This document shows, one piece after another, positions 6,844 to 55,928 of a stretch of DNA of 64,000 bases. The notes under the pieces were generated by a model that did not search any database, had not been told where the DNA came from, and was given only the letters and a program-made list of their open reading frames with translations. The stretch is from Desulfovibrio sp. UBA6079 (GTDB lineage: Bacteria > Desulfobacterota > Desulfovibrionia > Desulfovibrionales > Desulfovibrionaceae), in contig DIXN01000001.1 of assembly GCA_002428705.1 (NCBI GenBank), positions 15,030-79,029 on the forward strand, in the 5' to 3' direction. The translations under genes and the position numbers were made by a program. How positions within the stretch are numbered: the first letter of the stretch is position 1; the number at the start of each line of letters is the position of its first letter.

Positions 6844-6871
6844 GGATCGCATCAGGAATGGTTTCCTCCCG

Positions 6872-7002
6872 CCACTCGAACTGAAAATCGAAGCCCCCGG
6901 TGTTCTTCGCACCGGGGGCTTCGATTTTCAGACTGCGGGGTCGAGGGGGGTCACCCCCCTCGTGGAGGTCCAGGGGGCGACGCCCCCTGGCCGCCGGAGG
7001 CC
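6872..7002 (+). repeat. modular hairpin mosaic repeat, copy A (HP1-HP2-HP3b-tail)
   Basis: HP1 6881..6931: CTGAAAATCGAAGCCCCCGGTG / CACCGGGGGCTTCGATTTTCAG, 22-bp stem. HP2 6942..6962: CGAGGGGGG-TCA-CCCCCCTCG. HP3b 6970..6990: CCAGGGGGCG-A-CGCCCCCTGG. Tail 6991..7002: CCGCCGGAGGCC. Confidence 0.9.
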
Positions 7003-7670
7003 GCCGTCGCCGCCTGCCCTTCGCCCCACCAGCAGCGCACGTCGGGGTCCAGGCTGCGCAGGGCGTGGTCCACGGCCGGGGGGACGAGGCCGCAGAGGCT
7101 TTTGCCGGCGAGAAAAGCATCGCGCACGGCGGTGGCGCTGATATCCAGGCGAGGGATGGGCAGGAAGCGCAGGCTGTGGCCGTTTGCGAAGCGCCAGAGG
7201 TCCTCGGCGGTGCGTTCTGCCTCGGGCCAGAAGGCGGCGGCGAAGCGGGCGATGGTCGGCAGATCCACGTCTTCGCGGGCCACGGCCACGAGGTGGGCGT
7301 GGTCGGTCAGCTCGCGGGCGCGGTGCCAGGATCCGAGCTTGAGCACGTCCTCGGCGCCGAGGAGGAAGTGGAGATCGGCCTCGGGCAGAAGGCGGCGGTA
7401 GCGCATGAGGGTGTGCAGGGTGTAGGACGGGCCGGACATGGCCGCCTCGACCAGGCTGATCCGGGCCCAGGGCAGGTCGGCCACGGCCAGGCGCAGGAGG
7501 TGCCAGCGCACGGGCAGGGGCAGGAAGCCGCCGCAATCCTTCAGGGGGTGGCGGGCGGCGGGAACGAGGTCCAGGCGGTCGAAGCCGAGGCGTTCGCGGA
7601 CTTCGACCGCCAGCCGGAGGTGGCCGTTGTGGACCGGATTGAAGCTGCCGCCGTAGAGCCCGAGGCGCAT
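6951..7670 (-). CDS. nadD: nicotinate-nucleotide adenylyltransferase
   Basis: MRLGLYGGSFNPVHNGHL carries the HxGH nucleotidyltransferase motif. The gene lies directly downstream of proA. The last ~17 codons and the stop codon lie inside repeat copy A. Confidence 0.85.
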   Translation of the reverse strand: MRLGLYGGSFNPVHNGHLRLAVEVRERLGFDRLDLVPAARHPLKDCGGFLPLPVRWHLLRLAVADLPWARISLVEAAMSGPSYTLHTLMRYRRLLPEADLHFLLGAEDVLKLGSWHRARELTDHAHLVAVAREDVDLPTIARFAAAFWPEAERTAEDLWRFANGHSLRFLPIPRLDISATAVRDAFLAGKSLCGLVPPAVDHALRSLDPDVRCWWGEGQAATAASGGQGASPPGPPRGG

Positions 7671-12634: not shown

Positions 12635-14221
<1,587 letters not shown>

Positions 14222-14235
14222 GGCCGGGCGGAGCA

Positions 14236-14367
14236 GGCCTCCGGCGGGCAGGGGCTTAAGCCCCTGCACCCCCGCAAGGGGGATGATCCCCCTTGACCCC
14301 GCAGTTTGAAAATCGAAGCCGGCCGGTGCGAAGAACACCGGCCGGCTTCGATTTTCAGCTTGGTGGC
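14236..14367 (-). repeat. modular hairpin mosaic repeat, copy B (tail-HP3a-HP2-HP1, reverse orientation)
   Basis: Tail complement GGCCTCCGGCGG 14236..14247. HP3a GCAGGGGCTTAAGCCCCTGC 14248..14267. HP2 CAAGGGGGAT-G-ATCCCCCTTG 14275..14295. HP1 GAAAATCGAAGCCGGCCGGTG / CACCGGCCGGCTTCGATTTTC 14308..14356. Confidence 0.9.
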
Positions 14368-14670
14368 GAAGGGAGAGCAGTGTCCCGCGCGGAAGCCGGG
14401 TGTCCGTAGCGACTGGAGAAAAACAAAAACTGGCCAATGAGGGAAAGACGGACGTCGAAAAAGCCCGGTCGAGAGCCGGTACGCTCTTTCACCTCGTGGC
14501 GGCTTTTCTCTCCTGTTTTTTCCGGACATCCCCTCAGGCAACGAGGATGGCCCCGCATGCCCGCCCTGCTGTGCCGCGGCCATGCGCTTTCTGACCATCG
14601 ATGGCGGCTTTTTTTCCGATCGACTCCGGGACTGACTGGCGTCTGGGATATTTTCGTGTAACATGGCTCA

Positions 14671-14721
14671 CCATTGCTCTGGAGCGGTCCGGGTCTTTCC
14701 CGGACCGCTCCGGAGCAATGG
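14671..14721. repeat. 23-bp-stem hairpin (one T.G position)
   Basis: CCATTGCTCTGGAGCGGTCCGGG-TCTTT-CCCGGACCGCTCCGGAGCAATGG, immediately upstream of repeat copy C. Confidence 0.85.
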
Positions 14722-14725
14722 AACC

Positions 14726-14801
14726 GAGGGGGTCCAGGGGGAAAGCATTTCCCCCTGGCAGGGGGTGCAGGGGGACGGCGTCCCCCTGCCCGCCGGAGGC
14801 C
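14726..14801 (+). repeat. modular hairpin mosaic repeat, copy C (HP3b-HP3a-tail; no HP1/HP2)
   Basis: HP3b CCAGGGGG-AAAGCATTT-CCCCCTGG 14734..14758. HP3a GCAGGGGGAC-GGC-GTCCCCCTGC 14767..14789. Tail CCGCCGGAGGCC 14790..14801. Confidence 0.85.
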
Positions 14802-14832
14802 AGGCAGCGCCCTACCATGGAGGCTCGCAACC

Positions 14833-17553
14833 ATGACATCGAGTTGGCATGACAAGCTGGTGGCCGAGGTTCTTCAGGCCTTCGAAGTCGACCCCGGACA
14901 GGGGCTGACGGACGAGGCGGCGGCAGCCCAGCTGGCGGAACATGGACCGAACGTGCTCACCCGCGAGGAGTCGACCTCGGCTCTGGCCATTTTCGCCGGC
15001 CAGTTCAAGAACGTGCTCATTCTCATCCTCATTGCGGCCATCGTGCTCTCGGCCCTGGTCGGCGAGTTCGAGGATGCCGTGATCATCGGCATCATCGTGG
15101 TCTTCGCAGCGGTGCTCGGCTTTGTCCAGGAGTACCGGGCGGAGCGGGCCTTGGAGGCCTTGAGGGGCATGCTTGCGCCCATGGTCGCGGTGCTGCGCTC
15201 GGGCCGGGAGATGGAGGTGCCCTCGGCCGAGGTGGTGCCGGGCGACGTTTTGCTGCTGGCGGCCGGATCAAAGGTTCCGGCCGACGCGAGGGTCATCGAG
15301 GCCCATGCGCTGCGCGCCGACGAGGCCGCGCTGACCGGCGAGTCGCAGCCGGTGGGCAAGGACGAGGCGCCGCTGCCGGCCGGGACCCGGTCGTCGGACC
15401 GCGGCAACATGGTCTTCGCCGGCACGTCCATGACCTACGGCCGGGGCCGGGCGTTGGTCGTGGCCACGGGCATGGACACGGAGTTCGGCCGCATCGCCCG
15501 CGAGGTGGCGGTGACGGTCAAGGAGAAGACGCCGCTTGAGCGGCGCACGGACGAGATCGGCAAGTGGCTGGGCCTGGCGGCGCTCCTCATCTGCGCCCTG
15601 GTGGCCGGGATCAGCATTGCGCGCGAGGCCGCGGCCGGGCAACTGACCGCGCAGTTCGCGGTGACCGTGGTCATGTTCTCGGTGGCGCTGGCCGTGGCCG
15701 CGGTACCCGAGGCCCTGGCGGCCATCGTCACCGGCGCGCTGGCCATCGGCATGCGCCATATGGCCAGGAGCGGAGCGCTGGTGCGCCGGATGCCGGCGGT
15801 GGAGACGCTCGGCTGCACCACGGTCATCTGCACCGACAAGACCGGCACGTTGACCCGGGGCGAGATGACCGTGCGCCGGATGTTCGCCGCAGGCAGGACG
15901 GTCGAGGTCTCGGGCGCGGGCTATGCGCCCGAGGGGAAATTCACCGAAGCCGGGGGGGAGGCGGCGGAGGCGGACGGGGCGCTGGCCGCCCTGCTGACGG
16001 CCGGGGTGTTGTGCAATGACGCCGAATTGTTCGAGAAGGAAGGGCAGTGGCGCATCGGCGGCGATCCGACCGAGGCCGCCCTGGTGGTGGCCGGGGCCAA
16101 GGCCGGGCTGTGGAAGAAGGAGCTGATGGAGAAGAGTCCCCGGACCGAGGAGCTGCCCTTCAGCTCCGAGCGCAAGCGCATGACCACCATTCACGGCGTG
16201 GATGGGGGGCGCCTGGCCTACGTCAAGGGCGCGCCCGAGGTCGTTCTGTCCCGCTGCGACACGGTGCTGACCGAGGCAGGCGTGAAGCCGCTGGACGAGG
16301 GGCAGCGCCGGGAGATCGCCCGCCTGGCCGAGGCCATGGCCGGTGACGCACTGCGTGTGCTGGCCGCGGCCCGCCGGGAGCTGCCGGCAGGGCTCGACCC
16401 CGCCGACGAGGCCGCGGTCGAGGCCGGGCTGACCTTCCTCGGGCTGTGGGGCATGATGGACCCGCCGCGGCCCGAGGCCGTGGAGGCCATCCGCACCTGC
16501 CGCCGGGTGCACATCACCCCGGTGATGATCACCGGCGACCACAGGTTGACCGCCATGGCCATCGCCCGGGAGATGGGCATCTACCGCGAGGGCGACCGGG
16601 TCCTGACCGGGGAGGAGCTGGAGGCCATGGACGAGGCGGCGCTCGCCGAGGTGGTCCGCACGGTCAGCGTCTACGCCCGGGTTTCGCCCATCGACAAGCT
16701 GAAGATCGTGAAAGCCTGGAAAGCCCTGGGCGAGGTCGTGGCCATGACCGGCGACGGGGTCAACGACGCCCCGGCCCTGAAGCACGCGGACATCGGCGTG
16801 GCCATGGGCATCAGCGGCACCGAGGTGACCAAGGAGGCCGCGGACATGGTCCTGACCGACGACAACTTCGCGACCATCGTGGTGGCCATCGAGCGCGGCC
16901 GCTGGATCTACGACAACATCAAGAAATACCTGACGTATCTGTTGCGCTGCAACATCACCGAGGTGGTCGTCATCGGCGGCGTGGTCCTGGCCATGGGGCC
17001 GGACTACCTGCCGCTCCTGCCCGCGGCCATCCTCTACATCAACCTGGCCACCGACGGCCTGCCGGCGCTGGCCCTGGGGATATCCCCGCCCGACCCGGAC
17101 ATCATGCAGCGCCCGCCGCGCGACCCGCGCGAGCCGGTCTTCACCACCGACGTCCGGGCCTTCCTGCTCACCGGCCTGGTGATCGAGATACCCTTCTTCC
17201 TCTTCCTGTTCTTCCATGATCTGGCCGATATCATCGTGGCCCGGACCGAGATATTCTTCGCCTTCATCGTCGTCGAGATCGTCGTGGCCCTGAACTTCCG
17301 CAGCCTGCGCTACAGCGTCCTGGCTGCCCCGCCGCACCTCTGGCTGGTCCTGGCGATTGTCTGGGAGGTCGTGCTGCTGGTCGGGCTCATCCAGATTCCC
17401 GCCCTGCGCGAGGCCTTCGGCATAACCTGGCCGACCGCGCCCGGCCTGGCCATCATCCTCGGCTATTCCGCGCTCATCTTCCTGGCCATGGAGGGCCTGA
17501 AGGGCTTTCTCCGACGGCGCGATCGCGGCCGGATCAAGAGTATGAAGGCCTAG
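14833..17553 (+). CDS. cation-transporting P-type ATPase (type II, Ca2+/Mg2+-like)
   Basis: Phosphorylation motif ICTDKTGTLT, actuator motif LTGESQP, hinge motif TGDGVNDAPALK, and about 10 TM segments. Start moved to ATG 14833 (MTSSWHDKLVAEVLQAF) because the first 53 codons of the track ORF lie in the hairpin and repeat copy C. Confidence 0.9.
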   Translation: MTSSWHDKLVAEVLQAFEVDPGQGLTDEAAAAQLAEHGPNVLTREESTSALAIFAGQFKNVLILILIAAIVLSALVGEFEDAVIIGIIVVFAAVLGFVQEYRAERALEALRGMLAPMVAVLRSGREMEVPSAEVVPGDVLLLAAGSKVPADARVIEAHALRADEAALTGESQPVGKDEAPLPAGTRSSDRGNMVFAGTSMTYGRGRALVVATGMDTEFGRIAREVAVTVKEKTPLERRTDEIGKWLGLAALLICALVAGISIAREAAAGQLTAQFAVTVVMFSVALAVAAVPEALAAIVTGALAIGMRHMARSGALVRRMPAVETLGCTTVICTDKTGTLTRGEMTVRRMFAAGRTVEVSGAGYAPEGKFTEAGGEAAEADGALAALLTAGVLCNDAELFEKEGQWRIGGDPTEAALVVAGAKAGLWKKELMEKSPRTEELPFSSERKRMTTIHGVDGGRLAYVKGAPEVVLSRCDTVLTEAGVKPLDEGQRREIARLAEAMAGDALRVLAAARRELPAGLDPADEAAVEAGLTFLGLWGMMDPPRPEAVEAIRTCRRVHITPVMITGDHRLTAMAIAREMGIYREGDRVLTGEELEAMDEAALAEVVRTVSVYARVSPIDKLKIVKAWKALGEVVAMTGDGVNDAPALKHADIGVAMGISGTEVTKEAADMVLTDDNFATIVVAIERGRWIYDNIKKYLTYLLRCNITEVVVIGGVVLAMGPDYLPLLPAAILYINLATDGLPALALGISPPDPDIMQRPPRDPREPVFTTDVRAFLLTGLVIEIPFFLFLFFHDLADIIVARTEIFFAFIVVEIVVALNFRSLRYSVLAAPPHLWLVLAIVWEVVLLVGLIQIPALREAFGITWPTAPGLAIILGYSALIFLAMEGLKGFLRRRDRGRIKSMKA

Positions 17554-44374: not shown

Positions 44375-44424
44375 GTGGGGGCGGGACCCCCCTTTTTCGG
44401 CAAAAAGGGGGGTCCCGCCCCCAC
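44375..44424. repeat. perfect 23-bp-arm palindrome (bidirectional terminator-like)
   Basis: GTGGGGGCGGGACCCCCCTTTTT-CGGC-AAAAAGGGGGGTCCCGCCCCCAC, 40 nt downstream of the uppS stop. Confidence 0.9.
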
Positions 44425-44630
44425 ACCCCCACCCTCCCCCAAAAACCATTGGCTCGCTTCGCGGGGTACGCGCTGGTCGGATCAGGAGACTGAACGACTG
44501 GGCGGGCTCAGAGCGAGCGTCGAAAGACTCCCTGACCCGCCGCGCGGCAGGGATGTCCTCGTGCGCCTGCTCGTCTTTCGGCCCGGAGTCTGGCGGGGTC
44601 TTCTCCCGCCAGGCTCAGGACCGAAAGCCG

Positions 44631-44702
44631 GGGAGGTCCAGGAGGGAAGCATTCCCTCCTGGCAGGGGTGCAGGGGACAGCGTCCCCTGCCCGCCGGAGG
44701 CC
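44631..44702 (+). repeat. modular hairpin mosaic repeat, copy D (HP3b-HP3a-tail)
   Basis: HP3b CCAGGAGGG-AAGCATT-CCCTCCTGG 44638..44662. HP3a GCAGGGGAC-AGC-GTCCCCTGC 44670..44690. Tail CCGCCGGAGGCC 44691..44702. Colinear with copy C, with paired (compensatory) stem differences. Confidence 0.85.
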
Positions 44703-44721: not shown

Positions 44722-45300
44722 CTATTTGGCCGGGTAGATTTTTTCGAGCTTGGCGCCCTTGAAGGAGATGTCGGCCATGAGGCCTTTGACGTCGAGGACG
44801 AAGCCGATGATCGGGTTCTTCATGGTCTGGGTGTCGAGGCTTTTGCCCGCGCCGATGTCGGCCATGGCCACGTTGCCGTCCACGCCGATCTCGAAGCCGT
44901 TGCTGTGCTGGAACTTGTAGAGGGCTTCCTCGGTCATGAACAGGATGATCACGTCCTTTGATTGGCCGCCGATCTGCAGGCCGAAGGAGGCGGACTTGAG
45001 GGCATAGTAGTCGACGGTCTTGCCGGCGATGCGCAGGACGCCTTCGCCGTATTCGCCGCCCAGGATGAGCGCGCCCTTGACCACGTTCGGGATGATCAAC
45101 ACGCCTTTGGCCGAGGCCAGCAGCTCGTCGGCGCCCGTGACCTGCTGCTTGAAGCGCGTCAGCGTCCAGTCGGACTTGGTGTCGAGCTCGCTGGCCGTGG
45201 CCGCGGCCAGGGCCGTGCCGGCGGCAAGGGTGGTGCCAAGGGCCAGGACGAACGCCAGAATCGTTGTCCGGCGGGCGAAGCGAAAAATGCGCATGCTCAT
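44722..45300 (-). CDS. SYLF (Ysc84-like, DUF500) lipid-binding domain protein, secreted/lipoprotein-like
   Basis: Signal-like N-terminus MSMRIFRFARRTTILAFVLALGTTLAAGTALAA. SYLF-type blocks ...GALILGGEYGEGVL... and ...SFGLQIGGQS. Confidence 0.7.
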   Translation of the reverse strand: MSMRIFRFARRTTILAFVLALGTTLAAGTALAAATASELDTKSDWTLTRFKQQVTGADELLASAKGVLIIPNVVKGALILGGEYGEGVLRIAGKTVDYYALKSASFGLQIGGQSKDVIILFMTEEALYKFQHSNGFEIGVDGNVAMADIGAGKSLDTQTMKNPIIGFVLDVKGLMADISFKGAKLEKIYPAK

Positions 45301-45606: not shown

Positions 45607-47751
45607 GTGAAGAATGTTCGTATGGCGGTCAAGCTCATCGGCTCTTTCATCATTGTTTCCTGTGTGACCATGCTTGTCGGCGCCAGCGGTTACTACGGCC
45701 TTACGAAGGTCTCGGGCAGCCTGACCGAGATCGAGGATGTGCGGCTGCCGTCCATCCAGCACCTGCTGACCGTTTCCGGGCAGTTCGAGGGCCTGCGCGT
45801 GAGCATGCGCACCCTGCTCCTGCCAGGACTGCCCAAAGCCGACCGCCAACGCCAGTACGACGACGTGGCCCAGACCCGCGAGACGTATACCGCGGCCTGG
45901 AAAGCCTACGAGGCGCTGCCGCGCACGCCCGAAGAAGACAAACTCCTGCAGGAACTCACAGCTGCGGTGGCCTCCTGGAAGAAGTCCAACGACAATTTCA
46001 TGTCCCTGGCCAAGCAGTGGGACGCCTCGGGCATACCCGAGCCCAACAAGCTGCTGCTCAGGCTCGAGACCTTCCGCACCGAGATGCTGACGGCCAGCGG
46101 CAATCTCGAGGACGTCGTCTACCGCGGCACCTGGTACAACGGTCCGAAGAAGACGGGCCAGACCCAACTCGGTGCCTTCATCGCCGGCGAGGCCAAGGAC
46201 ATCGAGAACCAGGAGCTGAAAAGCGCCTTGGACAACCTGTCCGCACTCTACTCCACCTTCTTCGAGAGCCTGTCCGCGGTGCTGAAAGCGGTGGACGAGG
46301 GAGACATGGAGCAGACCAGCGCCCTCTTCCGCTCGACCGCCGAACCGCAGGGCGAAGCCTGCGTGGCCGCCCTGAAGCCCATCGCGGAGATGGCCGCGCG
46401 GGTCCAGGCCATCCATGACGAGCTCCTGCGCATGGCCTTCAGCGAGCAGCGCGAACGCCAGTCGGCCTGCATGGACCTGCTGGGCAAGCTCGTCGCGCTG
46501 AACATCCAGTACGCCAAGGACACCCGCGACCAGGCCACCACCGTCACCGCCACGGCCAACCTGACCTCCATGGCCGGCACCGTGGCCGGCATGATCCTCG
46601 CCCTGGTCATCGGCATCGTCATGACCCTGGCCATCACCCGGCCCCTGGGCAAGAGCCTGGCCTTCGCCCGGGCCGTGGCCGCCGGCCGGCTCGACGAGGA
46701 CCTCGACATCCGTCAGCGGGACGAGATCGGCCAGCTGGCCGAAGCCCTGCGGACCATGGTCGGCGCCCTGCAGAAGAACATCCGCGAAGCCGGCGAAAAG
46801 GCCGAGCTGGCCCAGAAGATGACGGGCGAGGCCAAGACCGCCCTGGCCGAGGCCGAGGCCGCCAAGGAAAAGGCCCTGGCCGCCCGGCGCGAAGGTCTGC
46901 TCGAAGCCGCGACCCAGCTCGAGGACGTGGTCAACGCCCTGTCCTCGGCCTCCGAACAGCTCTCGGCCCAGGTCACCCAGGTCAGCCGCGGCGCCGATGT
47001 CCAGCGCGAACGCAGCGGCGAGACCGCCGCGGCCATGGAGGAGATGAACGCAACCGTCCTCGAGGTCGCCAAGAACGCCGCCGACGCTGCCACCCAGGCT
47101 GAATCCGCGCGCAAGGAGGCCGAAGGCGGCAACACCGTGGTCGGCGCGGTCGTCACGGCCATCGAGGACGTCCGACGGCGCACCGAGACCATGAAGGAAA
47201 GCCTCGACGCGCTGGGCCACCAGGCCCAGGCCATCGGCCAGATCATGACCGTGATCACCGACATCGCCGACCAGACCAACCTGCTGGCCCTGAACGCCGC
47301 CATCGAGGCCGCCCGCGCCGGCGACGCCGGCCGAGGCTTCGCCGTGGTCGCCGACGAGGTCCGCAAGCTGGCCGAAAAAACCATGACCGCAACCAAGGAG
47401 GTCGGCACGGCCATCGGCTCCATCCAGGCCTCCACCAGGTCCAACATCGCCGAGATGGACGCCGCGGCCCAGGCCGTGGGCGCCTGCACCGGCCAGGCCG
47501 GCGAGGCCGGCGCGGCCTTGCAGCGCATCGTGGACATCGTCGAGCGCACCACCGACCAGGTCCGCTCCATCGCCACCGCATCGGAACAGCAGTCCTCGGC
47601 CAGCGAAGAAATCAACCGCGCCGTGGAGGACGTGAACCGCATCTCCTCCGAAACCGCCGAAGGCATGACCCAAGCCGAGGCCGCCATCCGCGAGCTGGCC
47701 GCCCTGACCGGCCGCCTCAAGGAGCTCATGGACTCCCTGCGCCGCCAATAG
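45607..47751 (+). CDS. methyl-accepting chemotaxis protein
   Basis: Two TM segments flank a helical sensor domain, followed by HAMP. Conserved signalling hairpin [44 protein letters not shown] 45607; ATG 45622 is an alternative. Confidence 0.9.
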
Positions 47752-47769: not shown

Positions 47770-47893
47770 GGCCTCCGGCGGGCAGGGGGCGTTGCCCCCT
47801 GCACCCCCACAAGGGGGATGATCCCCCTTGACCCCGCAATCTTGAAATCGAAGTCCTTTGGCGCATTGAGCGCCAAAGGACTTCGATTTCAAG
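47770..47893 (-). repeat. modular hairpin mosaic repeat, copy E (tail-HP3a-HP2-HP1, reverse orientation)
   Basis: Tail complement GGCCTCCGGCGG 47770..47781. HP3a GCAGGGGGC-GTT-GCCCCCTGC 47782..47802. HP2 CAAGGGGGAT-G-ATCCCCCTTG 47810..47830. HP1 variant CTTGAAATCGAAGTCCTTTGGCGC / GCGCCAAAGGACTTCGATTTCAAG 47841..47893. Confidence 0.9.
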
Positions 47894-48147
47894 AAGAACA
47901 GGTGGCAGGGCATCCTGACCGCCCGACGGGGTCCAGAATGCCCCGGAATGCCGACGGACGGTGATTGGCCTCTGGTCGGCGGCGATCGAAAAAGTCGCCA
48001 TTACGGTAGAGATAGTGCCGTCCGCGGCCGGATGCCCGGTCCTTCGACCAACCGTCCGCGCCGGTCCGGGCCGTCTTCACCCTCACCGGCTGCCGTTGAT
48101 CTTCCTTGCCTTGGTCGACGACCCCGGCGGGGGGCATGGCCCGCCTT

Positions 48148-48303
48148 GGCCACCAAGCTGAAAATCGAAGCCGCCCGGTGTTCTTCGCACCGGGCGGCTT
48201 CGATTTTCAGACTGCGGGGTCGAGGGGGATCATCCCCCTCGTGGGGTGCAGGGGCAACGCCCCTGCTGGGGTCCAGGGGCGAAGCCCCTGGCCGCCGGAG
48301 GCC
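48148..48303 (+). repeat. modular hairpin mosaic repeat, copy F (HP1-HP2-HP3a-HP3b-tail; most complete)
   Basis: HP1 48158..48210: CTGAAAATCGAAGCCGCCCGGTG / CACCGGGCGGCTTCGATTTTCAG. HP2 48221..48241: CGAGGGGGAT-C-ATCCCCCTCG. HP3a 48248..48266: GCAGGGGC-AAC-GCCCCTGC. HP3b 48273..48291: CCAGGGGC-GAA-GCCCCTGG. Tail 48292..48303. Ends 8 nt before the dnaA stop codon. Confidence 0.9.
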
Positions 48304-48310
48304 CGCCCGG

Positions 48311-49684
48311 CTACAGGTTCATATGGTTGATGGTGTGGGTGATCTGGCGGCCGAGGGGGGTTTGCTGGGCGATTTCGCGTTCGAGCTTGGTGATGCCCTT
48401 GATCACGGTGGAGTGGCGGCGGTTGAATTCCTGGCCGATGTCTTCGAGGGACAGGCCGGTATGCTTGCGGGCCAGGTAGAAGGCGGTGTTGCGGGCGATG
48501 ACGATGTTCTGTCTGCGGCTTTTGGAGCTCAGCTCGTCCTGGCTCAGGCGGAAGTTCTGGCAGACGGCGCGGATGATGGCGGCGAGGTCGGGGCCGGCTT
48601 CCTTGGCTTCGTAGTTGCGCAGGGTCTCCAGGGCCAGCTCGGTGGTGATCTGGCGGTTTAAGAGTTTGGCCTTGAGGACGAGCGACTGCAGGCAGCTCTC
48701 GAGGGTCCGGATATCGGCCTGGATGCGCTGGGCGAGGAGTGCGGAGACGTCTTCGGGGACATCGACCTGATAGCGGGTGCGGGCCTTGTGGCTGACGATG
48801 CGCATGCGGGTGTCGAGGTCGGGGTGCTCGATGACGGCGAGCAGGCCGGCGCAGAAACGGGAGGCCAGCTGGCGGTCGACGCCGGAGAGTTCGCGGGGGA
48901 GAAACGAGCTGGTCAGGACGATCTTGCTGCCGTGCTCGCGCAGGGCTTTCAAGGTGGCCAGGAGCTCGTCCTGGATCTTCTCCTTGCCCTGGAGGAAGTG
49001 GATGTCCTCGAGGAGGAGGATGTCGACGTGGTCGCGGAACTCGGCCTTGAAGCGGTCCATCTCGCGCATCTTGAGAGCCAGGACCATGCGCGTGGCGAAC
49101 TCCTCGGCGGTCAGGTAGCGCACGCGCACGGCGCGGGTGTTGGCGATGGCGGTCAGGGAGCGGCCGATGGCCTGGAGGAGGTGGGTCTTGCCCAGGCCCG
49201 GGGAGGAGCAGAGGATGAGCTGATCGGAGAGCAGGGTCTTGCGGCACAGGCCCTGGGAGGCGGCGAAGGCCAGCTCGTTGCAGGGTCCGACCACGAAATC
49301 GTCGAAGGAGAAGCGCCAGGCCGGGGCGGTGCGGGGCGCCGGGGCAGGAGCCAGGACCGCCGGGGGCGTGGCGGCGGGCGCGGGCAGGGCCATGGGGCGC
49401 TGCACGGCCGGGTCGGCGGGCGGCGGGGTCGGATGTAAAGCAGTGGAGCGCGGACGCGTGCTCACGGTGACCCTGGCCGGCCGGCCGAGGACGTCGCTTG
49501 CGGCCTGGGTCACGGTGGTCAGCAGGCGGTCGCGGACGCCGCTGGCGACGAACTCGTTGGGTGCGACAAGTTCACAGTGATCGTCCCTGATGACCGCCGA
49601 GAGGGGGCTGATCCAGATTTTAAAAAGGCCAGGATTCAGGTTTTTTTGGAGGATATGGAGGATGCGGTCCCAGCTTGTCTTCAT
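48311..49684 (-). CDS. dnaA: DnaA-family chromosomal replication initiator (possibly a divergent paralogue)
   Basis: Domain I MKTSWDRILHILQKNLNPGLFKIWISPL, a Pro/Ala-rich linker, AAA+ Walker A SSPGLGKTHLLQAIG, LLLEDIHFLQGKEKIQDEL, and domain IV IVIARNTAFYLARKHTGLSLEDIGQEFNRRHSTVIKG. Confidence 0.8.
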   Translation of the reverse strand: MKTSWDRILHILQKNLNPGLFKIWISPLSAVIRDDHCELVAPNEFVASGVRDRLLTTVTQAASDVLGRPARVTVSTRPRSTALHPTPPPADPAVQRPMALPAPAATPPAVLAPAPAPRTAPAWRFSFDDFVVGPCNELAFAASQGLCRKTLLSDQLILCSSPGLGKTHLLQAIGRSLTAIANTRAVRVRYLTAEEFATRMVLALKMREMDRFKAEFRDHVDILLLEDIHFLQGKEKIQDELLATLKALREHGSKIVLTSSFLPRELSGVDRQLASRFCAGLLAVIEHPDLDTRMRIVSHKARTRYQVDVPEDVSALLAQRIQADIRTLESCLQSLVLKAKLLNRQITTELALETLRNYEAKEAGPDLAAIIRAVCQNFRLSQDELSSKSRRQNIVIARNTAFYLARKHTGLSLEDIGQEFNRRHSTVIKGITKLEREIAQQTPLGRQITHTINHMNL

Positions 49685-50209
49685 GACGGGAAGGTTTAGC
49701 CCCGAGAGCGGTCAAAGGGCAAGGCGCGAATACGGCCTCCCGGCCGGGCCGGGGCTGGCAGGTTATCTACAAACCAACACGTTGTTTTCATTAATTTTAT
49801 TTGATTTGCTTGCGACTAAAGGACATTCGCATGTCCCCGGATAGCGACCAGCTGGCCGGGGTTTCCGCTGGTCATGTCATTTTTTATCAACAACACTTGA
49901 TATCTTTTTCCACAGGTTAATTTCATGTTTTCATCTGATTTCAAAGCCTAGGATCATTTTTTTGCTTTGCACCTTGCCATAACATTGACATTTTTGGCTG
50001 CTACGCCTGTAACCCCGATGTAACACATCGGCCCGGGGCGGCGATTTGCCTGCCTCCTCCGGACCCGACCCGGTTCCGCCGCACTGTTATCGCTGCGCAC
50101 AAAATGTATTACTACATCCCGGAAAGCAGCCAACCCGGCCGATTCCCGGACTTCGTTTTCAACAAGCGGAAAATGGCCGAACGACGGGGGCCGCCACGTG
50201 CAAGCCCGG
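49685..50209. other. AT-rich intergenic region with three 8/9 DnaA-box matches (dnaA promoter/autoregulatory region or oriC-like)
   Basis: TTATCTACA 49763..49771, TTATCAACA 49884..49892 and TTTTCCACA 49906..49914, compared with TTATCCACA. All three are in the same orientation. AT-rich runs occur at ~49785..49810 and 49920..49965. Confidence 0.4.
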
Positions 50210-50878
50210 CTAGCCCGCGGCCCGCGCGGCGAAGATGCGGATGTCCTCGGCGAAGCGCGCCGAGAGGTCGTTGAAAAGAACCGGGATGCGGGCGGCGAAG
50301 GCCGCGAGCAGCGGCAGCATGACCTCGCGCATCTGGGGGTGGGAGGCCGGGTCGCAGCGCAGGGAGAAGACATGGCGCCACTCGCGCAGGTTGGCGGTCA
50401 TGACGATCTCGGTCTTGAGCGAGTTGGGCAGGACGCTGCGCGCCTCCTGGGCCTTGGCCCCGGCGTCCATGAGCGCGAGATAGGCCGCCTCGCAGGCCAC
50501 CATGGCCTTCTCCCAGATGGCGTACTTGGCCGGGTCGTCCTGCCAGAAGAAGGGCCGGATGACGGTGATCTCGCGGCCGAAGCGGTCACGGGCGTAGTTG
50601 GCGTAGCGCGTGGACTCCTGGGAGAAGGAGGCCAGGCGGTGGCGCACCAGCTCGTGGGTCACGCCGCGGTCGCAAATGATGCGCACGGTGGCCGAGGAGT
50701 GCTCGATGACCGACTCGTGGCCCGAGGCCAGGATGCGGCCGACGAAGGTCTCGGCCGTGCCCGAGGCGATCTTGTCCTCGGACTTGTAGCAGGTCCGGCC
50801 GGCACGCTCGATGAGGGCCAGCACCTCCTCGCCCGAGGGCAGGCGCTCCGGGTGAAAGCTCGGGGGGATAACGCGCAC
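50210..50878 (-). CDS. thyX: flavin-dependent thymidylate synthase
   Basis: ThyX signature RHRLASFSQESTRY. I prefer GTG 50878, which has GGAG 7 nt upstream and lies just after the ruvB stop. The track start TTG 50899 would overlap ruvB by 17 nt. Confidence 0.8.
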   Translation of the reverse strand: MRVIPPSFHPERLPSGEEVLALIERAGRTCYKSEDKIASGTAETFVGRILASGHESVIEHSSATVRIICDRGVTHELVRHRLASFSQESTRYANYARDRFGREITVIRPFFWQDDPAKYAIWEKAMVACEAAYLALMDAGAKAQEARSVLPNSLKTEIVMTANLREWRHVFSLRCDPASHPQMREVMLPLLAAFAARIPVLFNDLSARFAEDIRIFAARAAG

Positions 50879-50882
50879 GGGT

Positions 50883-51869
50883 TCACTCCATGGTTTCAAT
50901 GAGCTTCAGGTGCTGGTAGGCCTTGGCCGTGGCCACCCGGCCGCGGGAGGTGCGTTTCATGAAGCCGCACTGGATGAGGTAGGGCTCGTAGATGTCCTCC
51001 ACCGTGCGCACCTCCTCGCAGCAGGCCACGGCCAGGGTCTTCACCCCCACCGGCCCGCCCGAGAACTGGCGGATGAGCACCGAGAGGATGGTCCGGTCCA
51101 TCTGGTCCAGGCCCGAGGCGTCCACGTCCATGCGCGCAAGCGCGGCCACGGCCAGGTCGGCGTCCACGGCCTCGGCCCCGGCCACCTGGGCGAAGTCAAT
51201 GACCCGCCTGAGCAGCCGCCCGGCTATGCGCGGCGTACCCCGGGCGCGCTCGCCTATGGCTCTGGCCCCTTCCGGGGTGACCTTGGCCCCCAGGATTCCG
51301 GCTGCGCGGGTGACGATGCGCGCAAGATCGGCCGGGGTGTAGAACTCGAGCCGGGCGATGACCCCGAAGCGGTCGCGCAAAGGCGAGGTGAGCAGCCCGA
51401 TGCGCGTGGTCGCTCCGACCAGGGTGAAGGGCTCCAGGCTGATCTTCACCGAGCGCGCGCCCGGCCCCTGGCCGATGATCACGTCGAGCTTGTAGTCCTC
51501 CATGCCCGGGTAGAGGATCTCCTCCACGCTCGCCGGCATGCGGTGGATCTCGTCGATGAACAGGATGTCGTTCTTGCCCAGGTTGGTCAGGATCGCGGCC
51601 AGGTCGCCGGCCCGCTCCAGCACCGGCCCCGAGGTCGAGATCATGTTCACCCCGAGCTCCGAGGCCATGATCTGGGCCAGCGTGGTCTTGCCCAGGCCCG
51701 GGCTGCCGTAGAAGAGCGTGTGGTCCAGGGCCTTGCCCCGTTCCCTGGCCGCCTGCAGGAAGACCGCGAGGTTCGCGCGCAGGTCGTCCTGGCCGATGAA
51801 ATCGGCCAGGCGATGGGGCCGTAGCGTGTCGTCGGGCTTCTTGCCGGGGGTGGGTGCTGGCATGGTCAT
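50883..51869 (-). CDS. ruvB: Holliday junction branch migration helicase RuvB
   Basis: [12 protein letters not shown]..., Walker [21 protein letters not shown]. Confidence 0.95.
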
Positions 51870-51876
51870 CCTGACG

Positions 51877-52485
51877 TCATCCGGCCTTGGCGGCGGCCAT
51901 GGCCTTGAGGCAGGCCCTGAGCGCCCCGGCGGCGTCGAGGTCGGGCTCGGCCTCGAGCACCCGGCGGGCCACGGCCGCGCCCTCCTGGTCGTCGTAGCCG
52001 AGGTTGCGCAGGCCCACCAGGACGTCGTCGAAGACCCCGCCCACGGCCTTGGCCTTGGACCGGGGCACGCTCGGCCGGCCGTCGTCGAGCTTGAACTTCA
52101 GCTCGACCATGATCTGCTGCCCGCTCTTCTTGCCGATGCCCGAGACCGAGGTCAGGGCCGTAAGGTCGCCGGAGGCCACCACCTCGCGCAGCTCCTCGGG
52201 GGAGAAGCGCGAGAGGATGGCCAGGGCCTTTCGCGGGCCTAAGTTCGAGACCGAGGTCAGGATGCGGAAAAGCCCGCGCTCCTCCAGGGTCTCGAAGCCG
52301 AAGAGCTCGTTTGCGTCCTCGCGGATGACCTGGACGGTGAAGAACCGGGCCTCGCTGCCGGGCTCGGGCAGGTGGGCCAGGGCCGGAGTGGGCAGGAAGA
52401 CCTCGTAGCCCACGCCGCCGGGCGTGGCCAGCAGGCAGGAGCGCTCGGTCGCGGCCAGGACCGTGCCTTTGACATGGCAGATCAT
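51877..52485 (-). CDS. ruvA: Holliday junction DNA-binding protein RuvA
   Basis: [10 protein letters not shown]..., GVGYEVFLP, HhH motifs ...[12 protein letters not shown]. Confidence 0.9.
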
Positions 52486-52994
52486 GCGATCCCCGCCAGG
52501 CGCTTGAAGCGCCGCTCGTTCAGGTGGCAGATGGCCACGGCCAGGGCGTCGGAGGCGTCCACGGCCAGGGGTTTGGCCTCGCCCAGGAGCCGGCCGACCA
52601 TGAAGGCCACCTGGCTCTTCTCCGCCCGGCCCACGCCGACGATGCTCTTCTTGACGTAGGTCGGCTCGTAGGCCTCGACCGGCACGCCGCCCGCGGCGCA
52701 GGCCGTGAGCGCCGCGCCCCTGGCCTGGCCGAGGATGAGGGCGCTGCGCGCGTTGGCCGAGACGAAGACGTCCTCCACGGCCGCGACCTCGGGCCGGTGC
52801 GCAGCGATGAGCTCGCTGAGTCGGCTGAAGATGCGGTAGAGGCGCTCGGCCATGGGCTCGGCCGAGGTGCCGCGGATGACCCCGGCGGCGACCAGGCTGA
52901 GCGAACCCGAAGTCTCGGCCACCAGGCCGTAGCCCGTGGCCCGCGAGCCCGGGTCGAGCCCCAGGACCACGACGGCGCCCTCTGCGCGCGGCAT
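52482..52994 (-). CDS. ruvC: Holliday junction resolvase RuvC
   Basis: VVLGLDPGSRATGYGLV (catalytic Asp block). 170 aa with a 4-nt overlap with ruvA. Confidence 0.9.
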   Translation of the reverse strand: MPRAEGAVVVLGLDPGSRATGYGLVAETSGSLSLVAAGVIRGTSAEPMAERLYRIFSRLSELIAAHRPEVAAVEDVFVSANARSALILGQARGAALTACAAGGVPVEAYEPTYVKKSIVGVGRAEKSQVAFMVGRLLGEAKPLAVDASDALAVAICHLNERRFKRLAGIA

Positions 52995-53744
52995 CTAGGC
53001 GCCCATCTCCTCGAGCAGGCTCTCCGGCAGCTCGAAGTTGCCGTAGACGTTCTGCACGTCGTCGTTGTCCTCCAGCAGATCGACCATCTTCACGATCTTG
53101 CGCCCGGCCTCGTCGTCCAGGGGCACGGTGGTCTTGGCGATCATGTCGATCTTGGCGCTCTCGAAGCTGAGCCCAGAGGCCTCGAAGGCGGCCTGCGCGG
53201 CCTCGAAATCGGCCGGCGCGGTGCGCACCTCCCAGTAGTCGTCGTCATCGACCACGTCCTCGACTCCGGCCTCGAGACCTACCTCCATCAGCCTGTCCTC
53301 GGTGACGGCGCTCTTGGGGAAGGAGAAGATGCCCTTCTTGTCGAAGATCCAGCCCACCGACCCGGTCTCGCCGAGCTGGCCGCCGTGCTTGGCCAGAATG
53401 TGCCGGACCTCGGCCACGGTGCGGTTCTTGTTGTCGGTAACGGCCTCGATGACCAGGGCCACGCCGCCCGGGCCGTAGCCCTCGTAGGTGATCTCGTCCA
53501 GGACCTCGGCCGTCAGCTCGCCGGTGCCCTTCTTGATCGCGGTCTCGATCTTGTCCTTGGGCAGGTTGACCGCCTTGGCCGCGGTGATGGCCGTGCGCAG
53601 GCGGGCGTTGGAGGCCGGGTCGCCGCCGCCGCTCTTGGCCGCGAGCATGACCTCCTTGGCCGCCTTGGTGAACAGCTTGCCGCGCTTGGCGTCCTGCGCG
53701 CCCTTGCGCAAGCGGATATTGGCCCATTTGCTATGACCGGACAT
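52995..53744 (-). CDS. yebC: YebC/PmpR-family transcriptional regulator
   Basis: MSGHSKWANIRLRKGAQDAKRGKLFTK... is the canonical N-terminus. Confidence 0.9.
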   Translation of the reverse strand: MSGHSKWANIRLRKGAQDAKRGKLFTKAAKEVMLAAKSGGGDPASNARLRTAITAAKAVNLPKDKIETAIKKGTGELTAEVLDEITYEGYGPGGVALVIEAVTDNKNRTVAEVRHILAKHGGQLGETGSVGWIFDKKGIFSFPKSAVTEDRLMEVGLEAGVEDVVDDDDYWEVRTAPADFEAAQAAFEASGLSFESAKIDMIAKTTVPLDDEAGRKIVKMVDLLEDNDDVQNVYGNFELPESLLEEMGA

Positions 53745-53749
53745 AATCC

Positions 53750-54355
53750 TTACTCCTTGTGCTCGTTTTCCTTATAACCAAGCCCTATGACGAACATCTC
53801 CTTGGATTCCTCCCGGGAGCTCTTGGGCTTGAAGGTCTTGACCGAGGCGAACGCCTTGCGCAACCCGTCCAGGTAGGCCTTGACGTCCGGCCCCTCGAAG
53901 AACTTGACCACCAGCGACCCGCCCGGAGCCAGCACCTTGCGGGCGATTGTAAAGGCCTCTACGCAAAGTTCCAGCGAATAGGCCTGGTCCCGGAACTTGA
54001 TGCCCGTGGTCTTGGGCGCCATGTCCGAGAGGACTACGTCGAAGGGCGTGAGCCCGTCCATGGCCGCGGCCATCTCCGCCGAGGGGGCGAAGGCGTCGGC
54101 CACCAGGAAGGTGACGTTCTCCGGAAATTCGGTCTCGGTGGCCGAGAGGTCGACCCCCAGCACCCGGCCCTTGCCGCCCACCACCTTGGCGGCAAACAGC
54201 GTCCACGAGCCGGGCGCCGCGCCGAGGTCCAGGATTTTGGCCCCGGGTTTCAGCACCTTGAAGCGCTTGTTGATTTCCTGGAGTTTATATACAGAACGGG
54301 CGGGATAGTTCTCCCGCTTGGCCTTGTTGAAGTAATGATCCCGGTAGGTTTTCAT
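53750..54355 (-). CDS. rlmE: 23S rRNA (uridine-2'-O)-methyltransferase RlmE/FtsJ
   Basis: [13 protein letters not shown]..., SAM motif [23 protein letters not shown]. Confidence 0.9.
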
Positions 54356-54416
54356 GGGCGGCGTCGTCCGGCCGGGACTATAGCCAAAAGGCGGATGGGC
54401 GCCAATACCTTATGCC

Positions 54417-55928
54417 ATGTCCCGACGCCCTGAAAGACTGCAGATCGTAAACGAGCTCGGCAAGCCCCAGAGCCTGGCCGCGGGCGAGGAGCAGTTCGCC
54501 CGCCTGGGCCACGGCCAGGAGACCCTCGTCCTCGGCCTCGGCCCGGACCCGGCCATCCTCGCCTCGCTCCTGCCCGGCGAGGGCGTGGCCTACGTGGAGT
54601 GCCCGCAGTTCGCGGAGCAGATGCCCGAGCGCTGGGCAGCAAGCATCCCCCCGGGCTGGGCGCGCCTGGCCCCCGAGGACCTCACTCCGGGGCTGCTGGC
54701 CGGCTGCCAGGTGCTCGTCTACACCCCGAACGCAAAGCTCTTCCCCTCGTTCTGGGGGCCGATCCGCGCCGCCTGCCAGCTGGCCCAGGCCCCGGGCGGG
54801 GCGCCGCCGGCCGCATCGGGCGAGGTCTGGCTGCCCGGCGACGAGGACGACCTGCTCGTCTCCGAGATCGCCCAGACGCTCATGGATCTCGGCCTGTCCG
54901 TGCGCCGCCTGGCCACCGAGGGCCTGGCCGCCGAGCTGCCGCGCCTCCTCAAGCACGGCCGGCCGGAGCTGTTCATCAGCGTCAACTTCAAGGGCCTGGA
55001 CCCGCTGGGCGAGAGCTTCTGGCTCATGCGCAAGGCCGGGACCCGGGTGGCCGTATGGTGCGTGGACAACCCCTTCAACCTCGTCTCGGGGCTGAAATCC
55101 GGCTTCTGGCGCAGCGTCCACCTGGCCGTGACCGACGCCTGGTTCGTGGAGCCTTTGCGCGCCCACGGCGCCGAGAACGTCCTGCACCTGCCGCTGGCCG
55201 CCTGGCCGAGCCTGTTCGCCAGCCCCCGGGTGGTGCCGAAGTACGACCTGTCCGGCCGGGTGGTCTTCGTCGGCCGCTCGGAGTTCCCGGAGAAGCAGCG
55301 CTTCTTCGCCGGGGTAGCCCTCCCCGAGGCCACGCTCGACGCCGCCATGAAGCGCCTGGACCAAGGCCTGCGGCCGGATTTCGCCTGGTGGCGCACGGCG
55401 CTCGAGATCGAGCGGCTGTGGCCCGGGGCCGAGGTGCGCAGCGTGGGCCTGGGCGCCGAGCAGTGCAGCCGCGCGGCCCGGGTGCTCACCCTGCAGTCCG
55501 CGGCCGACAACCTGCCCCTGACCATCTTCGGCGACCCGGGCTGGGCCGGCCTGGTCCCGGCCTGCAAGGACCTGCGCGGGCCGGTGGACTACTACGGGCC
55601 GCTCCCCTCCATCTACGCCACGGCCGAGGCCTGCCTGAACGTGACCTCGCTGCTGCTGCCCTTCGGCCTGACCCAGCGCCACTTCGACGTCTGGGCTGCG
55701 GGCGGCTTCCTGCTGACCGACGCGACGCCGGGCTTGCGCCTCTTCCCCGAGGAGCTCACCCGCGAGGTGTCCTTCGAGCACCCGGGCCGCATCGAGGGCA
55801 TGGTCCAGCGCTTCGCGGCCAACCCGGGGCTACGGGCCGACCTGGCCCGGTCCTGGCGGAGCCTGATCCTGGCCGAGCACACCTACCGCCAGCGCCTGGA
55901 AAAGCTCCTGGGCTGGCTCGCGCTGTGA
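54417..55928 (+). CDS. CgeB-like glycosyltransferase-fold protein (DUF3880-type), function unknown
   Basis: The C-terminal block RHFDVWAAGGFLLTD...LAEHTYRQRLEKLL resembles CgeB/Glyco_trans_1_2 family ends. The N-terminal half is unassigned. Confidence 0.5.
   Translation: MSRRPERLQIVNELGKPQSLAAGEEQFARLGHGQETLVLGLGPDPAILASLLPGEGVAYVECPQFAEQMPERWAASIPPGWARLAPEDLTPGLLAGCQVLVYTPNAKLFPSFWGPIRAACQLAQAPGGAPPAASGEVWLPGDEDDLLVSEIAQTLMDLGLSVRRLATEGLAAELPRLLKHGRPELFISVNFKGLDPLGESFWLMRKAGTRVAVWCVDNPFNLVSGLKSGFWRSVHLAVTDAWFVEPLRAHGAENVLHLPLAAWPSLFASPRVVPKYDLSGRVVFVGRSEFPEKQRFFAGVALPEATLDAAMKRLDQGLRPDFAWWRTALEIERLWPGAEVRSVGLGAEQCSRAARVLTLQSAADNLPLTIFGDPGWAGLVPACKDLRGPVDYYGPLPSIYATAEACLNVTSLLLPFGLTQRHFDVWAAGGFLLTDATPGLRLFPEELTREVSFEHPGRIEGMVQRFAANPGLRADLARSWRSLILAEHTYRQRLEKLLGWLAL

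Follow-up and report, generated by a model that had tools for sequence, protein, structure and literature searches.

Six GC-rich hairpin elements (A to F) recur within a 64,000-nt stretch of the Desulfovibrio sp. UBA6079 genome (GenBank assembly GCA_002428705.1, contig DIXN01000001.1, positions 15,030 to 79,029; the whole stretch is here called the window). They are best read as local composites of a widespread, previously undescribed family of extragenic palindromes resembling repetitive extragenic palindromic (REP) sequences. The basic unit of this family consists of GGG(G)T, a perfect hairpin of 6 to 12 bp with a loop usually of 3 nt, and the 12-nt tail CCGCCGGAGGCC. The elements are in kind with the palindromes of REP, bacterial interspersed mosaic element (BIME) and REPIN systems and belong to no defined family, as judged by the GTAG tag, the alternation of units, the features of miniature inverted-repeat transposable elements (MITEs) and the Rfam models. 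They are distinguished by a GGGT..CCGCCGGAGGCC frame found in at least four phyla, by near-perfect stems and by the growth of arrays at the gene-proximal tail. This reading draws on the observed repetition, structure, covariation, position and orientation of the units and on their orthologous persistence, turnover and cross-phylum spread.

The window has a G+C content of 67.5% and holds the tail seven times, against 0.11 occurrences expected from shuffled sequences; the seventh, at 40971, stands without a hairpin in the coding sequence of ribosomal protein S2 (a gene named through its syntenic locus). The pattern GGGGT-SCAGGRG..CYCCTGS was also found seven times, against an expectation of 0.00. 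When a covariance model of the terminal unit, a kind of model that a preliminary description of these repeats had proposed, was run on the window with filters off, exactly six strong matches of 43 to 63 bits were obtained, one in each element. The internal units of F scored 18 to 23 bits, and the best full-length match outside the elements (37 of 37 model positions, at the coding tail at 40971) scored 14.8 bits. As there were only six strong matches, the six elements form the complete census of the window. Reading all six loci confirmed the copies, places, orientations and modules (hairpins HP1, HP2, HP3a and HP3b) as first described, but three details had to be amended: C and D do not consist of HP3b-HP3a only, each having an extra upstream hairpin (HP0); A, B, E and F begin about 12 nt before HP1, at a shared GCCAC (Table 1); and A, as set out below, overlaps the end of a gene.

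Together, the six elements comprise 19 hairpins in 64 kb. Each is built of a long distal hairpin (HP1 or HP0), then two or three short units of GGGGT plus a perfect hairpin in direct tandem, then the tail, which in this Desulfovibrionaceae lineage is present only on the outermost tandem unit. From HP1 toward the tail, A, B, E and F follow the order GCCAC..(A/C)T, HP1, A(G/A)ACTGCGGGGTC, HP2, G(T/C)GGGGGT, HP3a and/or HP3b, and CCGCCGGAGGCC; the order in C and D is HP3b, CAGGGGGT, HP3a and tail. Copies B and F share 93% identity across 103 nt, linkers and flank included. Element F folds into four perfect hairpins (-120.7 kcal/mol, z = -7.5), and its complementary strand folds equally well.

To the preliminary description, absence from related genomes would have marked the repeats as a local artefact; the terminal unit was instead found, decisively, in several phyla. 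A scan of one genome per species with the pattern CAGGGG-N(3-14)-CCCCTGS-CCGCCGGAGGCC returned at least 108 loci (handles beginning with L below denote such loci, contigs or strains). The taxa among the matches listed included Sphingomonadales (Polymorphobacter and Sandarakinorhabdus, with many loci each), Arboricoccus, Acetobacteraceae and Asticcacaulis; Oscillospiraceae and other Clostridia, including the isolates Acutalibacter sp. 1XD8-33 and strain D16-76; and Desulfovibrio, Bilophila, Fundidesulfovibrio, Desulfoluna, Desulfobacteraceae and Myxococcota. The terminal unit is nearly unchanged in at least four phyla (Alphaproteobacteria, Desulfobacterota, Myxococcota and Bacillota), and the exact unit is present in isolates of Polymorphobacter, Sandarakinorhabdus, Arboricoccus, Fundidesulfovibrio, Desulfoluna and Acutalibacter and in strain D16-76. 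Positions that the pattern did not force are also conserved: the GGGT before the stem in 94 to 99% of units in Alphaproteobacteria and 68 to 96% elsewhere, and one to three C's after the tail. Clostridial and Desulfovibrionaceae copies have in common a two-hairpin layout (GGGTCAAGGG..CCCTTG-CNGGGT-GCAGGGG) and an upstream GCGAAGCG-GGGATTCCAAAGGG module. In all, 178 units were counted in 0.77 Mb of related loci, a density biased upward by the choice of loci for holding a unit. A metagenome scan with the HP1 pattern gave, among the matches listed, only chance palindromes without the tail, and a scan of viral contigs gave one Polymorphobacter-like contig only. The plasmid scan found only a weak, tail-less tandem-hairpin match upstream of mobC in small Paracoccus plasmids; on one of these, the small mobilizable plasmid pAES4 (L238, 1500-1600), an imperfect run of GGGGT-GCAGGGG-type hairpins without a tail lies directly upstream of mobC.

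The form taken by the unit differs among lineages. Sphingomonadales most often carry it as an inverted doublet of about 95 bp whose tails point outward and whose spacer (TTGAAGAGCGCC, in either orientation) is conserved. Longer structured repeats of other kinds end in this tail as well. Oscillibacter (L095, L105 and L004) carries inverted doublets of about 330 bp with structured-looking arms of about 150 nt that end in (GTTCCTTTTCT..AGAAAAGGAAC)-CCGCCGGAGGC-CCCCGTAGG; in L095 the tails lie at about 255, 3926, 4235, 7381 and 7694. Elements of about 180 bp in Desulfoluna and Desulfobacteraceae (L055, L084 and L092) have a tail near both ends, an inner long hairpin (..TGATTTGNCCCGAGGAACGAGGG..), outer inverted GCTGAATAGTT flanks and a T-run after the tail. 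The dominant stem-loop is specific to the genome, with TCA, CAAG and CTAG variants in Polymorphobacter and CTCAG and CCTCG in Sandarakinorhabdus, as would be expected if units were amplified within each genome.

Within the window every stem is perfectly complementary, and the differences between copies are two-sided substitutions and paired indels. The inner stem of HP1 is CGGCCGGTG/CACCGGCCG in some copies and CGCCCGGTG/CACCGGGCG in others, the closing pair of HP2 is either G..C or A..T, the HP3b stem of D is GGAGGG/CCCTCC, and paired one-base indels separate GGGG/CCCC from GGGGG/CCCCC and, in E, GAAATC/GATTTC from GAAAATC/GATTTTC. In the related loci and the window combined, a perfect hairpin of at least 6 bp abuts 183 of the 202 exact 11-nt tail cores; the other 19 comprise two with a single G-T mismatch and 17 without a hairpin, mostly coincidences in coding sequence. 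As controls, perfect abutting hairpins occurred at 0.65% of random positions and at 0 to 12% of positions when the anchor was slid by 3 to 12 nt. Among the 73 units whose stems were not forced by the scan pattern, 27 different stems were counted (for example GCAGGCC, CTGGGGCC, CAAGGTG and GTTCCTTTTCT).

The claim that both arms of a stem change together held in the window copies and in a model-based alignment of 106 distinct units, where 99.9% of 843 cells are standard pairs and six of the eight stem pairs show two-sided changes. Compensatory cells numbered 91 against 15.0 +/- 3.0 in shuffled alignments, none of 500 shuffles reaching 91, an excess that is to be read with the scan pattern having fixed part of the stem and the alignment having been fitted to the model. 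The signal was lost when the partner position was slid. It had been suggested that structure rather than primary sequence is selected or templated; the compensatory changes are confirmed, but constraint extends to the primary sequence, in that GGGT, stem base and tail are conserved far beyond this genome. G-U pairs fill only 3 of the 843 cells, and loops of 3 nt are preferred. These near-zero mismatches and G-U pairs, together with the many paired indels and the loop preference, suggest that stem symmetry is regenerated at the DNA level, likely by template switching in quasi-palindromes, which is well established as a source of mutation. Near-perfect stems and paired indels of this sort are not what selection acting on RNA alone would be expected to produce. 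Separately, an unrelated perfect palindrome (GGGGGCGGGACCCCCC-TTTTTGCCGAAAAA-GGGGGGTCCCGCCCCC, 44377-44422) lies 41 nt past the stop of an uppS-like (prenyltransferase) gene and is called as a terminator on both strands; in the 97.8%-identical strain described below its two arms differ by a paired change, which fits a general symmetry process.

Evidence on turnover came from relatives of the window, whose DnaA has one close strain at 98% identity among sequenced genomes, the nearest otherwise standing at about 62%. In strain L234, which matches the window at 97.8% identity over 18 kb, elements D and E are identical and F has been rebuilt. Read from the gene-proximal end, the window allele of F is tail-HP3b-HP3a-HP2-HP1 and the L234 allele is tail-HP3a(loop TTAA)-ACCCCG-CCAGGGGC-tail-HP3b-HP2-HP1; the former was present in three independent assemblies and the latter in two. 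The extra outer unit of L234, GGGGTGCAGGGGCTTAAGCCCCTGCCCGCCGGAGGCC, is attached immediately outside the former tail and follows a copy of the neighboring hairpin's 3' arm; at 37 of 37 positions it matches the terminal unit of copy B, which lies 34 kb off in the window. The L234 allele provides direct evidence for the copying of whole units from one locus to another, with addition at the tail end. Transposition, ectopic conversion and template switching at a hairpin are each consistent with the rebuilt F, which does not tell them apart. An apparent 29-nt polymorphism in D of contig L109 proved to be an NN scaffold gap and no real difference.

Units also persist. In orthologous doublets of Sphingomonadales (86 to 94% flank identity), both tails and perfect stems are kept and the stems have changed in a compensatory manner, as in GGGGC-TGA-GCCCC versus GGGAC-TCG-GTCCC, and the spacers have diverged or hold other insertions. 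A different palindromic repeat, GTCATTCCCGCGAAGGCGGGAATCC...GGATTCCCGCCTTCACGGGAATGAC, lies inside one Polymorphobacter doublet spacer (L101, 7320-7414), is lacking in the 94%-identical L064 (1392-1415) and occurs also in L032 and L106. In L103, a unit of about 58 nt (..CAAAAGC-GGGT-CCAGGGGCTCAGCCCCTGG-CCGCCGGAGGC-AAA) separates hisA and hisF, genes that overlap (ATGA) in two related genomes and so define an empty site; the GGAGG of its tail lies 4 nt before the hisF start codon. Contigs end at units, including two contigs that carry the dnaA gene of the window.

The extragenic setting given in the preliminary description was confirmed, with the tail facing the nearest gene in all six window copies, toward a stop codon in five and a start codon in one. 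The tail side of A reaches into a cytidylyltransferase-like gene (6951-7670, minus strand; Pfam PF01467) and covers its last 52 nt, so that the final 16 codons (ASGGQGASPPGPPRGG) and the stop codon of this gene are element sequence, the stop falling within the HP2 loop. The distance between tail and stop codon is 14 nt for B (gene 12635-14221, plus strand), 19 nt for D (Ysc84 gene, 44722-45300, minus strand), 18 nt for E (MCP or chemoreceptor gene, 45607-47751, plus strand) and 7 nt for F (dnaA, 48311-49684, minus strand); C, ahead of the long plus-strand open reading frame (ORF) 14674-17553, is the sole copy with its tail toward a start codon. A transcript read from the adjacent gene would pass the stop, a few nucleotides, GGCCUCCGGCGG, the short hairpins with ACCCC linkers and then HP1. 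Across taxa, with gene positions from a crude caller based on G+C content at third codon positions, 105 of the 153 tail-side neighbors in the related loci and the window are gene 3' ends (median distance, 9 nt), and the remaining 48 are gene starts at broad distances. Spacers from stop to tail are purine-rich and vary from 0 to 28 nt, and hence the element does not supply the stop codon. The tail as a general Shine-Dalgarno donor was likewise rejected, only 2 of 32 start-facing tails standing at a suitable distance. Single units are depleted in divergent, promoter-only regions (4 of 41) and enriched in convergent intergenic regions (15 of 41). In tandem-gene contexts the tail points toward the stop codon 13 times and toward the start codon 9 times; with so mild a bias with respect to transcription, the most fitting description of the tail is the element's outer border on the side of the gene. 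REPs of E. coli have also been reported to occur near stop codons and to be capable of stalling ribosomes there (PMC12306157).

HP1 has a GC stem flanked by GAAAAT on one side and ATTTTC on the other, and looks like an A/T-flanked bidirectional hairpin of the intrinsic-terminator type that has been coamplified with the short units. A relative with 60% DnaA identity has an GAAAATCCAAGG..CCTTGGATTTTT hairpin of the HP1 type in the same place after dnaA, and the HP1-equivalent hairpin in L237 is followed by TTTTT. In another relative (62% DnaA identity; L236, 11440-11500), dnaA is followed by a single long palindrome, CCCGGCGG-CCAAAGGAC-TTTT-GTCCCTTGG-CCGCCGGG, with one A-C mismatch and a one-base variant of the tail, CCGCCGGGGGCC.

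Known families and a partner enzyme were also sought. Rfam was searched with the window, with 18 loci and with the long elements of Oscillibacter and Desulfoluna, under permissive as well as gathering thresholds, and only subthreshold matches to generic hairpins were returned, in keeping with the first description, in which the family went unrecognized; the best match was RF02937 (Clostridiales-2), at 23.9 bits for E and 17.3 bits for F against a gathering threshold of 58.6. Diagnostic sequence strings were absent from the searchable literature, and topic searches gave nothing relevant. Surveys of REPs describe superfamilies tagged GTAG and CGTC and families of terminal inverted repeats (TIRs) around RAYT-like TIRYT genes (PMC3733652), and the tag and tail of the unit match none of these. 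Composite transposons spanning B..C and E..F were rejected: both are tail-outward inverted pairs in which each copy abuts its own gene, and the inner DNA (358 and 254 nt, respectively) is unique and unrelated, so the pairs are not composite elements. CC_1445-type TIRYT was considered as the mobilizer and set aside, as its genes are flanked by unrelated TTAGTGCACTGTCACCGTAATT repeats. These Y1 TIRYT genes (L241, 2700-4100; L239; L240), of a type very well conserved in Alphaproteobacteria, are 70 to 90% identical across Caulobacter, Sphingomonadaceae and Inquilinus and are bracketed by arrays of TTAGTGCACTGTCACCGTAATT-type repeats, and many of their contigs are only 1 to 2 kb long.

Taken as a whole, the evidence leads us to a reading in which hairpin units are copied at the DNA level and then retained as structures of the 3' untranslated region (UTR), and to this we give about even credence. 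Units would pass from locus to locus as DNA hairpins, the candidate agent being a hairpin- and sequence-specific enzyme with GGGT, stem base and tail as its recognition features; alternatively, the copying could result from ectopic conversion or from template switching at hairpins. New units would be added at the gene-proximal tail end. Stem symmetry may be kept by intrastrand template switching or by repair of quasi-palindromes, a step proposed because the correction of quasi-palindromes is established knowledge. Units would then be transcribed within the 3' UTR of the upstream gene, in the order 5'-stop-GGCCUCCGGCGG-hairpins-HP1, and be retained because stable hairpins that lie near the stop, before the terminator, would determine mRNA 3'-end stability, transcript termination and perhaps also the termination of translation.

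Several observations weigh against this reading. No homologue of Y1, REP-associated tyrosine transposase (RAYT) or TIRYT proteins was found in about 0.8 Mb of related loci when IS200 TnpA, E. coli RAYT and six TIRYT sequences (the RAYT and TIRYT queries being from the supplement of PMC3733652) were compared with all ORFs. No neighboring gene recurs, the only clusters being ABC transporters, short-chain dehydrogenases and similar. Target-site duplications, a check proposed at the outset, were not seen at the junctions examined, and the window copies lack TIRs, their ends being dissimilar (GCCAC.. versus ..GGAGGCC) and their flanks not duplicated; the empty site of L103 shows no clear duplication beyond a possible ATG. 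Elements D and E are the same in both strains and many units are stable at orthologous sites, so any mobility is slow. The four U's of HP1 fall below the 5-in-8 threshold of a simple terminator scan. A role of the units in RNA would follow from their likeness to E. coli REPs, hairpins described as affecting mRNA 3'-end stability and termination. REP-type repeats are normally lineage-specific because repeat and transposase coevolve, and the identity of the 12-nt tail across phyla is unlike such coevolving REP/RAYT pairs.

The main competing explanation, which we judge unlikely, is that the unit is a functional RNA or mRNA motif, a UTR hairpin (mostly 3', occasionally 5') whose single-stranded tail engages a universal partner through 30S binding or masking of the ribosome-binding site, the conservation across phyla being that of the partner. 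The core of the tail agrees with this, being a perfect GGAGG (Shine-Dalgarno-like) on one strand and CCUCC (anti-Shine-Dalgarno-like) on the other, as do orthologous persistence with an intact tail and compensated stems, the tight placement beside stop codons, tails 4 nt upstream of the hisF start (L103) and 7 nt upstream of an ATG (L068), and the filing of the closest Rfam family, Clostridiales-2, as a candidate small RNA. A universal partner would explain GGAGG, but not the identical flanks (CCGCC..CC) and GGGT across phyla, and units stand in both orientations to transcription (13 versus 9 in tandem-gene contexts), with just 2 of 32 tails that face a gene start at Shine-Dalgarno distance. 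The 99% perfect stems, the 3 G-U cells in 843 and the paired indels fit DNA-templated symmetry better, and genome-specific masters and the copying and pasting of units between loci indicate amplification.

Amplification of another kind would be involved if the units were ends or solo ends of MITEs derived from a DDE insertion sequence with a TIR beginning GGCCTCCGGCGG, the doublets being complete MITEs and single or tandem units their decayed halves. The tail-outward doublets of about 95 bp (Sphingomonadales), 180 bp (Desulfoluna) and 330 bp (Oscillibacter), with a tail at or near both ends, have the layout that this predicts, the window pairs B/C and E/F also have their tails outward, and contigs break at elements. 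Yet the DNA inside B-C and E-F is unique and unrelated, no junction examined shows a target-site duplication, and the 15 candidate intervals between inverted units hold ordinary genes and no transposase gene. In Desulfoluna a longer inverted repeat encloses the tail, units commonly occur singly or in direct tandem arrays, and perfect hairpins inside a TIR are more typical of elements processed as single-stranded DNA; we regard this origin as improbable. Least probable is that these are ordinary, independent terminators or attenuators of a GC-rich genome, alike by composition and convergence without any copying. In its favor, HP1 has the A/T flanks of a bidirectional terminator, dnaA of a distant relative is likewise followed by a hairpin of this kind, the elements are situated at gene 3' ends, and the unrelated palindrome at 44377-44422 also has a paired indel between strains. 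Identity outside the stems already contradicts this explanation, B and F being 93% identical over 103 nt with linkers and flanks; the invariant 12-nt tail (60-fold overrepresented), the short units without U-tracts and the occurrence of the same unit in genomes of very different composition and phylum also argue against it.

A broader proposal, in which GGGT-perfect hairpin-CCGCCGGAGGCC marks a pan-bacterial superfamily of palindromic repeats that stands apart from the GTAG and CGTC REPs, is put forward tentatively, and we lean toward doubting it. If true, it would imply either a highly conserved and so far unrecognized hairpin-specific activity that processes DNA or RNA, or a mobilizer that travels horizontally, assembling tandem arrays and inverted doublets at the ends of genes and restoring perfect stems. 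Invariance across phyla is the surprising part, being unusual for repeats of the REP kind: tag, stem base and tail are the same from gut Clostridia to freshwater sphingomonads and sulfate reducers, whereas the stems are free to vary yet remain perfect, which points to a conserved and hitherto undescribed recognition system. Candidates for this system are an enzyme and a universal RNA partner, for instance the anti-Shine-Dalgarno end of the ribosome. The clean, searchable signature allows the origin and movement of the repeats, the upkeep of their symmetry and their effects on message 3' ends to be tested. In practical terms, the units break assemblies and add spurious G/R/P-rich ORFs, and they can rewrite gene termini, as at the C terminus of the nadD-like gene 6951-7670 and in the start region of hisF in L103.

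Table 1. Positions, strands, covariance model scores and component parts of the six elements in the window
Element	Span	Strand	Score (bits)	Parts
A	6871..7002	+	43	GCCAC flank 6871-6875; HP1 6883-6929; linker ACTGCGGGGTC 6932-6942; HP2 6943-6961; HP3b 6970-6990; tail 6991-7002
B	14236..14372	-	53.7	tail 14236-14247; HP3a 14248-14267 (loop TTAA); HP2 14276-14294; HP1 14308-14356; GCCAC flank to 14372
C	14671..14801	+	48.6	HP0 14671-14721; HP3b 14734-14758; HP3a 14767-14789; tail 14790-14801
D	44590..44702	+	51.7	HP0 44590-44612; HP3b 44638-44662 (CCAGGAGGG/CCCTCCTGG); HP3a 44670-44690; tail 44691-44702
E	47770..47890	-	50.4	tail 47770-47781; HP3a 47782-47802; HP2 47811-47829; HP1 variant 47844-47890 (inner stem TCCTTTGGCGC)
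F	48149..48303	+	62.6	GCCACCAAGCT flank 48149-48159; HP1 48160-48208; linker 48211-48221; HP2 48222-48240; HP3a 48248-48266; HP3b 48273-48291; tail 48292-48303

Some features of the window around the elements were also recorded. The HP0 hairpins of C and D have similar T/C-rich loops (GTCTTTC and GTCTTCT) on unrelated stems. Directly to the left of element A, an 831-bp stretch (6013-6843) has a G+C content of 32.7% in surroundings of about 70%, carries one ORF of 276 amino acids and several promoter-like sites, and looks like foreign DNA. Between E and F, an ORF of 82 amino acids (47889-48137, minus strand) has no Pfam match, is not called in four public assemblies and is probably not a gene. 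In the region 48311-55684, dnaA is not beside dnaN or gyrB; it follows rlmE-yebC-ruvCAB-thyX and converges on the chemoreceptor gene, and the synteny upstream of it is kept in relatives with 60% DnaA identity.

Among known systems, MITEs differ from the window copies in having TIRs and target-site duplications. The first hairpin of RF02937 (Clostridiales-2) with its flanks (GGGGGUGCAGGGG..CCCCUGCCG) is nearly the same as the GGGGT-GCAGGGG unit, whereas the second half of that motif differs, and clostridial loci with the exact unit also score below its threshold. CGTC-tagged REPs and the TIRs of TIRtrons (Di Nocera et al. 2013, PMC3733652) are likewise palindromic families with a short terminal tag that occur as singles, dimers and clusters, some of them without a dedicated transposase. 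The G-rich GGGGWSAS of some TIRtron TIRs recalls GGGGTSCAG without matching it exactly; the tag and tail sequences differ, and CC_1445-type genes are flanked by the unrelated TTAGTGCACTGTCACCGTAATT repeats.

In Sphingomonadales, Oscillibacter and Desulfoluna, inverted doublets whose spacer is conserved resemble REPINs, as do the genome-specific master sequences and the vertical persistence at orthologous sites. The window copies are not doublets, B/C and E/F enclosing unique DNA, and the RAYT of REPIN/RAYT systems has no homologue in the roughly 0.8 Mb of related loci. The REPIN/RAYT systems of Bertels and Rainey are reportedly vertically inherited and lineage-specific, with no identical recognition sequence across phyla. 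With the REPs and BIMEs of enterobacteria the units share their nature as short, GC-rich extragenic hairpins in many copies, clustered as modular mosaics and gathered at the 3' ends of genes, in many cases at most about 15 nt from a stop, as well as implied effects on mRNA 3' ends and breaks in assemblies. REPs are lineage-specific and this unit's sequence is found in several phyla, with no associated RAYT found; its stems are, in a further difference, essentially always perfect and its loops mostly of 3 nt. The original comparison with a BIME/REP-like mosaic therefore stands for modularity and extragenic position, but the likeness to E. coli BIMEs is functional or architectural only: there REPs alternate and are set apart by defined linker motifs, whereas HP2, HP3a and HP3b all have the same orientation, each after GGGGT, and in place of the GTAG (GTRG) of the REP superfamily the units carry a 5' GGGT (70 to 99% conserved) and an invariant 12-nt 3' tail.

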